64,000 nt of DNA from Escherichia coli (GTDB lineage: Bacteria; Pseudomonadota; Gammaproteobacteria; Enterobacterales; Enterobacteriaceae): NCBI RefSeq assembly GCF_003018255.1, contig NZ_CP027440.1, one strand, 5' to 3'. Below, one piece after another: positions 4,079-19,454 of this stretch. The position numbers and the translations under genes are program-made. The notes beneath the pieces are model-generated. The model was given only the letters and a program-made list of their open reading frames with translations. It had not been told where the DNA came from and searched no databases. The number at the start of each line of letters is the position of its first letter. Position 1 is the stretch's first letter.

Positions 4079-5050
4079 ATGAATTTAGAAAAAATCAATG
4101 AGTTAACCGCGCAAGATATGGCGGGTGTTAATGCGGCAATCCTTGAGCAGCTTAATTCCGACGTCCAACTGATCAATCAGTTAGGCTATTACATCGTCAG
4201 CGGCGGCGGTAAACGTATTCGTCCGATGATTGCTGTACTGGCTGCACGAGCTGTTGGCTATGAGGGAAATGCGCATGTCACCATTGCTGCCCTGATCGAG
4301 TTTATCCACACGGCGACTCTGCTGCACGACGACGTTGTGGATGAATCAGATATGCGCAGGGGTAAAGCTACCGCCAACGCTGCATTTGGCAATGCCGCCA
4401 GCGTGCTGGTAGGCGATTTTATTTATACCCGCGCGTTCCAGATGATGACCAGCCTCGGCTCGCTCAAAGTGCTGGAAGTCATGTCAGAAGCCGTAAACGT
4501 CATCGCAGAAGGTGAAGTTCTGCAACTGATGAACGTTAACGATCCGGACATCACTGAAGAAAACTACATGCGCGTTATCTATAGCAAAACCGCGCGTCTG
4601 TTTGAGGCTGCCGCGCAGTGTTCCGGGATTCTGGCTGGCTGTACGCCGGAGGAGGAGAAAGGCCTGCAGGATTATGGGCGCTATCTCGGCACTGCTTTCC
4701 AGTTGATCGACGATTTACTCGATTACAATGCCGATGGCGAACAGTTAGGTAAAAACGTCGGCGACGATCTGAACGAAGGTAAACCGACGCTGCCGCTGCT
4801 GCATGCAATGCATCATGGCACACCAGAACAGGCACAGATGATTCGTACCGCCATCGAACAGGGTAACGGTCGCCATCTTCTGGAACCGGTTCTGGAAGCA
4901 ATGAACGCTTGTGGATCTCTTGAATGGACGCGTCAGCGTGCCGAGGAAGAAGCAGACAAAGCCATCGCAGCGTTACAGGTGCTCCCGGACACCCCGTGGC
5001 GAGAAGCACTCATCGGCCTCGCGCACATCGCTGTTCAACGCGATCGTTAA
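4079..5050 (+). CDS. ispB: Octaprenyl diphosphate synthase
   Basis: 323 aa; polyprenyl synthase aspartate-rich motifs (LLHDDVVDESDMRRG and FQLIDDLLDY). Confidence 0.95.
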   Translation: MNLEKINELTAQDMAGVNAAILEQLNSDVQLINQLGYYIVSGGGKRIRPMIAVLAARAVGYEGNAHVTIAALIEFIHTATLLHDDVVDESDMRRGKATANAAFGNAASVLVGDFIYTRAFQMMTSLGSLKVLEVMSEAVNVIAEGEVLQLMNVNDPDITEENYMRVIYSKTARLFEAAAQCSGILAGCTPEEEKGLQDYGRYLGTAFQLIDDLLDYNADGEQLGKNVGDDLNEGKPTLPLLHAMHHGTPEQAQMIRTAIEQGNGRHLLEPVLEAMNACGSLEWTRQRAEEEADKAIAALQVLPDTPWREALIGLAHIAVQRDR

Positions 5051-5277: not shown

Positions 5278-5556
5278 ATGGAAAGTAATTTCATTGACTG
5301 GCATCCCGCTGACATCATTGCGGGTTTGCGCAAGAAGGGAACGTCAATGGCGGCGGAATCTCGCAGAAATGGTTTGAGTTCCTCAACGCTGGCGAACGCA
5401 TTATCGCGCCCCTGGCCGAAAGGAGAGATGATTATTGCGAAAGCCCTGGGAACTGACCCCTGGATTATCTGGCCATCTCGCTACCATGATCCGCAGACCC
5501 ATGAGTTTATCGACAGAACGCAGTTGATGCGTAGCTACACTAAACCGAAAAAATGA
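5278..5556 (+). CDS. sfsB: Ner-like DNA-binding protein (sugar fermentation stimulation protein B)
   Basis: 92 aa, MESNFIDWHPADIIAGLRKKGTSMAAESRRNGLSSSTLANAL...; Shine-Dalgarno AAGGAG upstream. Confidence 0.9.
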   Translation: MESNFIDWHPADIIAGLRKKGTSMAAESRRNGLSSSTLANALSRPWPKGEMIIAKALGTDPWIIWPSRYHDPQTHEFIDRTQLMRSYTKPKK

Positions 5557-18608: not shown

Positions 18609-18754
18609 TCTTCATCACTTTGACATTCAAATCCCTTCAAGCTCCCCCCGACAATAAGAAAATCACGTACTGAAATCGTTCTCAATCAACGTCATTTGTA
18701 CATTTTGTGCGCTTTTCACTTTCAGAAGAACCTTAAGAAAACCTTAAGAAGCAT

Positions 18755-18771
18755 TGTTTAGGTTTCGTTTA
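18755..18771 (+). promoter_or_regulatory. PhoP box (direct repeat TGTTTA-N5-CGTTTA) in the yrbL promoter
   Basis: TGTTTAGGTTTCGTTTA lies about 12 bp upstream of a -10-like CATACT and about 50 bp upstream of the yrbL ATG; fits the (T/G)GTTTA-N5-(T/G)GTTTA PhoP consensus, and yrbL is a known PhoP target. Confidence 0.7.
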
Positions 18772-18821
18772 AGTTAATCGACCATACTGGAGATCGTCAG
18801 AAAATATTTCCAGGAGATGGC

Positions 18822-19454
18822 ATGATTCGCTTATCTGAACAAAGTCCCCTGGGCACCGGAAGACATCGGAAATGTTATGCGCATCCGGAAGATGCCCAAC
18901 GCTGTATCAAGATTGTCTACCATCGTGGCGATGGTGGCGATAAAGAGATCCGCCGTGAGTTAAAGTACTACGCGCATCTTGGTCGCCGGTTAAAAGACTG
19001 GAGTGGAATACCGCGCTATCACGGTACCGTTGAGACGGATTGCGGAACCGGTTATGTCTACGATGTGATTGCAGATTTTGACGGCAAACCCTCCATTACG
19101 CTGACCGAATTTGCTGAACAATGCCGTTACGAAGAAGACATTGCACAACTGCGCCAGCTACTGAAACAGCTGAAGCGTTATTTGCAGGATAACCGTATCG
19201 TGACGATGTCGCTGAAGCCGCAGAATATCCTCTGTCACCGCATCAGTGAGTCAGAGGTTATCCCCGTCGTCTGCGACAACATTGGTGAAAGCACATTGAT
19301 TCCACTGGCGACCTGGTCGAAGTGGTGTTGTCTGCGTAAGCAAGAGCGGTTATGGAAACGATTTATCGCCCAACCGGCGCTGGCTATTGCCCTGCAGAAA
19401 GATCTGCAACCTCGTGAGAGCAAAACGCTGGCCCTCACTTCGCGCGAAGCTTAA
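18822..19454 (+). CDS. yrbL: PhoP-regulated protein YrbL (kinase-like fold, function unknown)
   Basis: 210 aa, [56 protein letters not shown]... Confidence 0.9.

Follow-up and report, generated by a model that had tools for sequence, protein, structure and literature searches.

The tandem CTTAAG repeat in the promoter of yrbL is very probably an operator of the response regulator BasR (PmrA), through which the PhoP-dependent promoter of this gene is repressed. The finding is correct but already known: the original prediction gave no regulator name, and the operator had already been described in the literature. Of the two ideas offered in that prediction, a second dimeric regulator that binds beside PhoP through half-sites spaced by one turn of the helix was borne out by the match to the PmrA/BasR box and by the binding reported for this promoter, whereas an UP-element-like architecture was not supported, there being no match to the UP-element consensus within 3 mismatches. 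The additions made here to the known picture are modest; they consist of a call of the orientation of the box, the depth of its conservation, rare copy-number alleles, the box of Cedecea, and a conserved block farther upstream. The box is among the best-conserved parts of the promoter in the Enterobacteriaceae, which indicates that dual control of the kinase-like YrbL is under strong selection. Moreover, the inverted orientation of the box, its natural one-copy and three-copy alleles, and the upstream block may make this promoter useful for dissecting repression by regulators of the OmpR/PhoB family.

Organization of the yrbL promoter and the tandem repeat

In the 64-kb window (the whole stretch of DNA that was analyzed), the genes follow the enterobacterial order ptsN-rapZ-npr, yrbL, mtgA, an assignment supported by 99.8% identity to annotated E. 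coli chromosomes, and the ptsN-rapZ-npr/yrbL/mtgA region is collinear with that of strain K-12. The yrbL coding sequence (18822 to 19454, plus strand, with its ATG at 18822) specifies an uncharacterized kinase-like protein of 210 amino acids (PF10707). The PhoP-dependent promoter of yrbL has the -10 hexamer CATACT (18783 to 18788, plus strand), which is identical to the hexamer mapped in Salmonella, preceded at a distance of 11 nt by a PhoP box, TGTTTA-ggttt-CGTTTA (TGTTTAggtttCGTTTA), at 18755 to 18771 of the plus strand. This PhoP box is in the direct orientation and takes the -35 position. Promoters with a single direct (T/G/C)GTTTA-N5-(T/G/C)GTTTA box 11 to 12 nt 5' of the -10 hexamer have been defined as class II promoters of "architecture I" (Zwir 2012), and the yrbL promoter has this layout. 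The same source places the PhoP box of Salmonella yrbL 11 nt from the -10 hexamer, again as class II, architecture I, and an electrophoretic mobility shift assay with PhoP has been published for Shigella yrbL. Read in the direction of the gene, the promoter runs ...TTTCAGAAG, AACCTTAAGAA, AACCTTAAGAA, GCAT, TGTTTAGGTTTCGTTTA, AGTTAATCGAC, CATACT...

A repeat search found a perfect 11-bp unit, AACCTTAAGAA, at 18729 to 18739 and again at 18740 to 18750, with a start-to-start distance of 11 bp. Contained in these units are the two tandem copies of ACCTTAAGAA at 18730 to 18750, offset by 11 bp and each with the CTTAAG palindrome, that had been noticed originally; the PhoP box, too, lies where it had been placed. 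The two hexamers occupy 18732 to 18737 and 18743 to 18748 and are separated by the 5-bp spacer AAAAC, so that both the hexamers and the spacing of a PmrA box are present. The box core, CTTAAG-AAAAC-CTTAAG, spans 18732 to 18748 and is assigned to the minus strand, on which it reads CTTAAG-GTTTT-CTTAAG; its assignment as a BasR/PmrA box draws on its match to published boxes, its conservation, and its likeness to the boxes of K-12. On the minus strand, repeat unit 2 (18740 to 18750), which adjoins the PhoP box, is BasR half-site 1, and repeat unit 1 (18729 to 18739) is half-site 2; both read TTCTTAAGGTT. The box core lies on the upstream side of the PhoP box, with a gap of 6 bp between the two.

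The exact pattern CTTAAG-N5-CTTAAG had one match in the 64-kb window and was found in none of 100 dinucleotide-preserving shuffles. When two mismatches were allowed, the pattern was ordinary (2 matches observed versus 1.6 expected). The signal of the repeat therefore resides in its exactness and, above all, in its conservation.

The region that holds both boxes (18729 to 18775) also forms an imperfect 22-nt inverted repeat, with arms that are 73% complementary and 3 nt apart, and an AGGTTT spacer motif is common to both boxes. Inside the PhoP box (18757 to 18773), there are offset PmrA-like halves, TTTAGG-N5-TTTAAG, and in E. albertii and some Citrobacter these offset halves are full matches to nTTAAn-N5-nTTAAn.

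Identity of the repeat as a BasR (PmrA) box

According to the study of the K. pneumoniae PmrA structure, the verified Salmonella boxes are composed of a first half-site, CTTAAG, followed by five bp and a second half-site, XTTAAT, and are bound head to tail. The cryo-EM study describes the pmra-box as two XTTAAY hexamers that are five nt apart and overlap the -35 region of activated promoters. In K-12, the BasR box of arnB is CTTAAGGTTAAGTTAAT (also given as TTTCTTAAGGTTAAGTTAAT, from which 10 nt separate the sequence TAAAAT), that of eptA is CTTAAGGTTGGCTTAAT, and that of pmrR is CTTAAGGTTCACTTAAT, with CATACT after a gap of 10 nt. All three boxes open, in the direction of transcription, with the extended unit CTTAAGGTT as half-site 1, in which the hexamer is followed by GTT, and this unit is identical to both yrbL units as read on the minus strand. 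Thus, the repeat agrees with these three reference sites in its flanks as well as in its hexamers. More generally, two xTTAAK direct repeats with a 5-bp spacer are common to yrbL and the PmrA-activated promoters (pbgP/arnB, pmrC/eptA, pmrR, and ugd). In the activated promoters, one half-site is strong and the other weak, whereas both half-sites of yrbL are the strong CTTAAG.

Binding and repression come from published statements. As cited by later papers of the same laboratory, Zwir 2005 reported that PmrA/BasR binds to and represses the E. coli yrbL promoter, and Harari et al. gave a distance of about 24 bp between the PmrA and PhoP boxes of yrbL. A database-derived table in an E. coli transcriptome paper gives the regulators of yrbL as "BasR, PhoP." According to such later citations and compilations, positive control of yrbL by PhoP and negative control by PmrA date in the literature from 2005 and are recorded in E. 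coli regulatory databases. A literature search on effects of Fe3+ or BasS on yrbL returned no reports beyond those cited here.

Orientation and position of the box

Since the hexamer is palindromic but the 11-bp unit is not, the strand of the box can be called. The yrbL units give CTTAAGGTT on the minus strand only (CTTAAGGTTTT and CTTAAGGTTCT), while the plus strand reads CTTAAGAAAAC; the box is CTTAAGGTTTTCTTAAGGTT on the minus strand and is inverted relative to yrbL. In 11 of the orthologous promoters, both halves fit YTTAAK when the minus strand is read but not when the plus strand is read, and the converse was seen once. Variants that read ATTAAG or CTTAAA on the plus strand in orthologs are CTTAAT or TTTAAG on the minus strand. 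Likewise, the variants of unit 2 (CTTAAA, CTTAAC, and CTTAAT) all become xTTAAG, and those of unit 1 (ATTAAG, ATTAGG, and CTTAGG) become CTTAAT, CCTAAT, and CCTAAG, respectively. Half-site 2 forms of the CCTAAT/CCTAAG type have been documented for pbgP in the K. pneumoniae PmrA structure paper.

In PmrA-activated class II promoters, the box replaces the -35 element, is oriented along transcription, and is separated from the -10 hexamer by about 10 nt. The yrbL promoter does not have this layout: its box is inverted, ends 34 nt 5' of the -10 hexamer, off the -35 position, and sits 5' of the box of another activator. With the box inverted and 34 nt from the -10 hexamer, and with the PhoP box at -35, yrbL is not of the PmrA-activated type, which fits the repression that has been reported.

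A box in the opposite orientation was observed in Cedecea colo (about 1376 to 1392 of the fetched locus), where the strand of yrbL reads CTTAAGGTTTTCTTAAG. The start of this box is 125 nt away from the ATG, so that the PhoP-like box is more distant, and the GCGCTTT tail of the upstream block described below adjoins it directly; the rapZ-npr synteny is retained. Given that this box is both flipped and farther upstream, orientation may not matter.

Conservation of the box and of an upstream block

An alignment was made of 22 YrbL homologs, and 42 loci were fetched from species-representative genomes. The 150 nt 5' of the start codon were aligned for 31 Enterobacteriaceae promoters of about 12 genera, drawn from Escherichia species, Citrobacter, Salmonella, Pseudocitrobacter, Siccibacter, Superficieibacter, Pluralibacter, Pseudescherichia, Intestinirhabdus, and two further genera. 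Information per column was calculated as a mean, with one sequence per lineage and 15 lineages. The core of the BasR box was conserved at 1.45 bits per column and the PhoP box at 1.43 bits, and the -10 hexamer, at 1.67 bits, was nearly invariant. The values were 0.51 bits for the 13-nt linker 5' of the BasR box, 0.37 bits for the 6-nt gap between the BasR and PhoP boxes, and 0.29 bits for sequence further upstream. Of the 31 promoters, 29 had the pattern nTTAAn-N5-nTTAAn and the remaining two were off by one base (TTAGG), and the 5-bp spacer was retained in all of them. Across these promoters, the box started 22 to 24 bp 5' of the PhoP box and ended 33 to 35 nt from the -10 hexamer. The positions conserved across genera were the TTAA cores together with the CC/G of the hexamers and did not form a generic A/T tract. 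The original prediction had proposed a comparison of enterobacterial promoters as a check on the repeats, and on these 31 promoters the outcome was strongly positive.

A second conserved element, TTGTACATTTTGTGCGCTTT (also given as TTGTACATTTYGTGCGCTTT), was found at 18696 to 18715. With 1.56 bits per column across about 12 genera, this block is conserved as well as the PhoP and BasR boxes, and it is unique in the 64-kb window. The distance from the end of the block to the box and that from the box to the -10 hexamer added up to 53 nt in 29 of the 31 promoters; the spacing of the block from the core promoter does not change even in cases in which the BasR box moves by 1 bp. The block gave no promoter, terminator, or Rfam match. 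It was also compared informally, by eye, with consensus sites of RstA, MlrA, MarA/Rob, CRP, EvgA, ArcA, and sigma-54 and with the PhoP box, of which at most one half matched, and no candidate was persuasive.

Several loci departed from the common layout. One Enterobacteriaceae metagenome-assembled genome (MAG) had yrbL with the -10 hexamer CATACT and a PhoP-like box but no CTTAAG box, and in a Pseudocitrobacter MAG the CATACT hexamer was retained but the sequence 5' of it was unrelated and near a contig end. Both cases are possibly lineage-specific losses or assembly artifacts. In Citrobacter amalonaticus AUH_CA_2023_1, a third CTTAAG was present 12 bp 5' of the canonical pair (CTTAAGATATACCTTAAGAAAACCTTAAG). 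YrbL homologs with 49 to 57% identity were also encountered in the gut Betaproteobacteria Sutterella and Parasutterella; neither a PhoP-like nor a BasR-like box was present upstream of them, and they are therefore uninformative about the operator. Their occurrence suggests that yrbL spread horizontally to gut Betaproteobacteria without the enterobacterial control region. A 420-bp contig labeled Tannerella forsythia ATCC 43037 encoded part of a YrbL protein, with 98% identity to that of E. coli, and is almost certainly E. coli contamination of that assembly.

Copy-number alleles in E. coli

Among 5,426 complete E. coli genomes, about 5,424 to 5,425 had the 111-bp yrbL promoter, and in 5,299 its identity was at least 95%. 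A one-copy allele of the repeat occurs in the E. coli ST131 strain 4993 (2507 to 2517 of the fetched locus), the only genome that matched this allele at 99% identity or more, and is predicted to have lost the BasR operator. A three-copy allele occurs in the O157:H7 strain 493/89 (95 to 127 of the fetched locus), and the genome HCP4S3_I4 probably has three copies as well. Such one-copy and three-copy alleles were very rare among the 5,426 genomes. Tandem repeats of this kind are labile, and the nearly universal retention of two copies therefore argues for selection.

Alternative explanations for the repeat

We considered the possibility that the site is used mainly by another regulator of the OmpR/PhoB family, such as the PmrA paralog QseB, instead of or beside BasR. 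In a 2026 study of E. coli B, iron-selected lines with qseB mutations shared with basR mutant lines a profile in which arn and eptA were up and yrbL was down, and the authors invoked overlapping regulons. However, these effects are explicable by the known cross-talk between QseBC and PmrAB acting through BasR, the box agrees perfectly with the PmrA/BasR consensus and with the three BasR sites of K-12, and nothing requires that QseB use the site, so that this explanation appears improbable. Docking of alpha-CTD is less probable still. As an UP element, the A/T-rich repeat would boost the PhoP-dependent promoter, and its location at roughly -43 to -63 from the start site, which is usual for UP elements, and its A+T content of 68% are in keeping with such a role. 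Nevertheless, no match to the consensus AAAWWTWTTTTNNNAAA within 3 mismatches was found over 18725 to 18755; what is conserved is the hexamer pattern, including its C and G positions, rather than A/T tracts. Moreover, PhoP class II promoters of the yrbL architecture do not need alpha-CTD, and the effect reported for the ligand of the site is negative rather than positive.

It is similarly very unlikely that the leftward box serves to activate a BasR-dependent divergent promoter, with an unannotated transcript antisense to the 3' region of npr and with repression of yrbL as a side effect. The minus-strand orientation of the box is indeed that of activated promoters, and a conserved block does lie farther along the minus strand at a fixed spacing. 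However, a -10 element would be expected after about 10 nt, and the corresponding 13-nt stretch is poorly conserved (0.51 bits) and reads AAGTGA; candidate -10 hexamers within the conserved block vary at critical positions, a search of both strands gave no sigma-70-like promoter, and there is neither a conserved open reading frame nor an Rfam match. Finally, the repeat might be a neutral slipped-strand duplication without function, given that the copy number of the 11-bp unit does vary and that both one-copy and three-copy alleles exist in E. coli. The conservation analysis effectively refutes this explanation, to which we give almost no credence: two copies are kept at a fixed spacing across about 12 genera between linkers that are near random, and copy variants are extremely rare among the 5,426 E. 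coli genomes.

Comparison with other PhoP- and PmrA-regulated promoters

The closest functional analog of the yrbL promoter, taken as a BasR-repressed promoter, is that of Salmonella pmrD. Both have a direct PhoP box at -35 (architecture I) and a PmrA box upstream, and PmrA represses both. Work attributed to Kato in 2003 is said to have described Salmonella pmrD as PhoP activated and PmrA repressed, in a negative feedback. The two promoters have been described together as a PhoP/PmrA "bi-fan" motif. They differ in the distance from the PmrA box to the PhoP box, which is about 38 bp in Salmonella pmrD versus about 23 to 24 bp in yrbL, and in their products: PmrD is the connector that activates PmrA and so closes a feedback loop, whereas no role in this circuit is known for YrbL. 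The K-12 pmrD promoter was rejected as a structural analog, as no obvious canonical BasR box was found there.

With the architecture-I PhoP promoters (mgtA, phoP, and slyB), the yrbL box shares direct repeats of the OmpR/PhoB type with an 11-bp periodicity, and the BasR box of yrbL, read on the minus strand, has 73% identity to the region of the PhoP box on the plus strand. The two kinds of sites differ in hexamer and placement, the CTTAAG of the BasR box lying 5' of the -35 position and the (T/G)GTTTA of PhoP promoters lying over it.

Proposed mechanism of repression

In the account that the evidence favors, the activating signal for BasS/BasR would be Fe3+, Al3+, or mild acid, or would come through PhoP-PmrD, and a dimer of phosphorylated BasR would occupy the two CTTAAG half-sites, with its two DNA-binding domains head to tail. 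The half-sites would be on one face of the helix, since they are 11 bp apart. From its upstream, inverted position, BasR would be without the sigma4 and beta-flap contacts that are used at activated promoters and would instead repress the PhoP-dependent class II transcription of yrbL. The gene would be on in low Mg2+ through PhoQ/PhoP and would be turned down upon activation of BasS/BasR, according to the same PhoP(+)/PmrA(-) bi-fan logic as for Salmonella pmrD.

As for the physical mechanism, we infer from the 6-bp gap and the head-to-head placement of the dimers that BasR most likely hinders either the occupancy of the PhoP box or the formation of a productive PhoP-RNA polymerase complex. 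Alpha-CTD is not needed at architecture-I PhoP promoters of the mgtA type, and simple occlusion of alpha-CTD is therefore doubtful. Judging from the offset PmrA-like halves, it is conceivable that BasR also competes weakly and directly for the PhoP box. A more elaborate scheme, in which a third regulator acts at the block at 18696 to 18715 and the head-to-head placement provides a specific anti-activation contact between BasR and PhoP, seems rather unlikely.

Expression data from iron-adapted E. coli B lines with basR or qseB mutations agree with repression. In these lines, eptA, arn, pmrR, and basR were up, and yrbL was repeatedly among the most downregulated genes; the data are correlative and come from evolved populations with other changes.

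Other features of the locus and of the eptA promoter

Several minor features were observed in passing. On the minus strand of the K-12 eptA promoter (about 4638 to 4665 of the fetched locus), BasR half-site 1 supplies the 3' arm of a hairpin, CCAACCTTAAG-AA-CTTAAGGTTGG, that is perfectly paired and followed by a T-rich run, and the 5' arm of this hairpin holds the 11-mer AACCTTAAGAA of the yrbL repeat. The hairpin looks like the adiC terminator, which would thus overlap the BasR box. In E. coli 2009C-3133, an IS1A element is annotated inside the npr-yrbL-mtgA stretch. In the leader of yrbL, at 18800 to 18818, the palindrome GAAAATATTTC is conserved and precedes the Shine-Dalgarno region, CCAGGAG; the leader stretch AAATATTTCCAGGA is retained in most genera, which exceeds what a ribosome-binding site alone needs.
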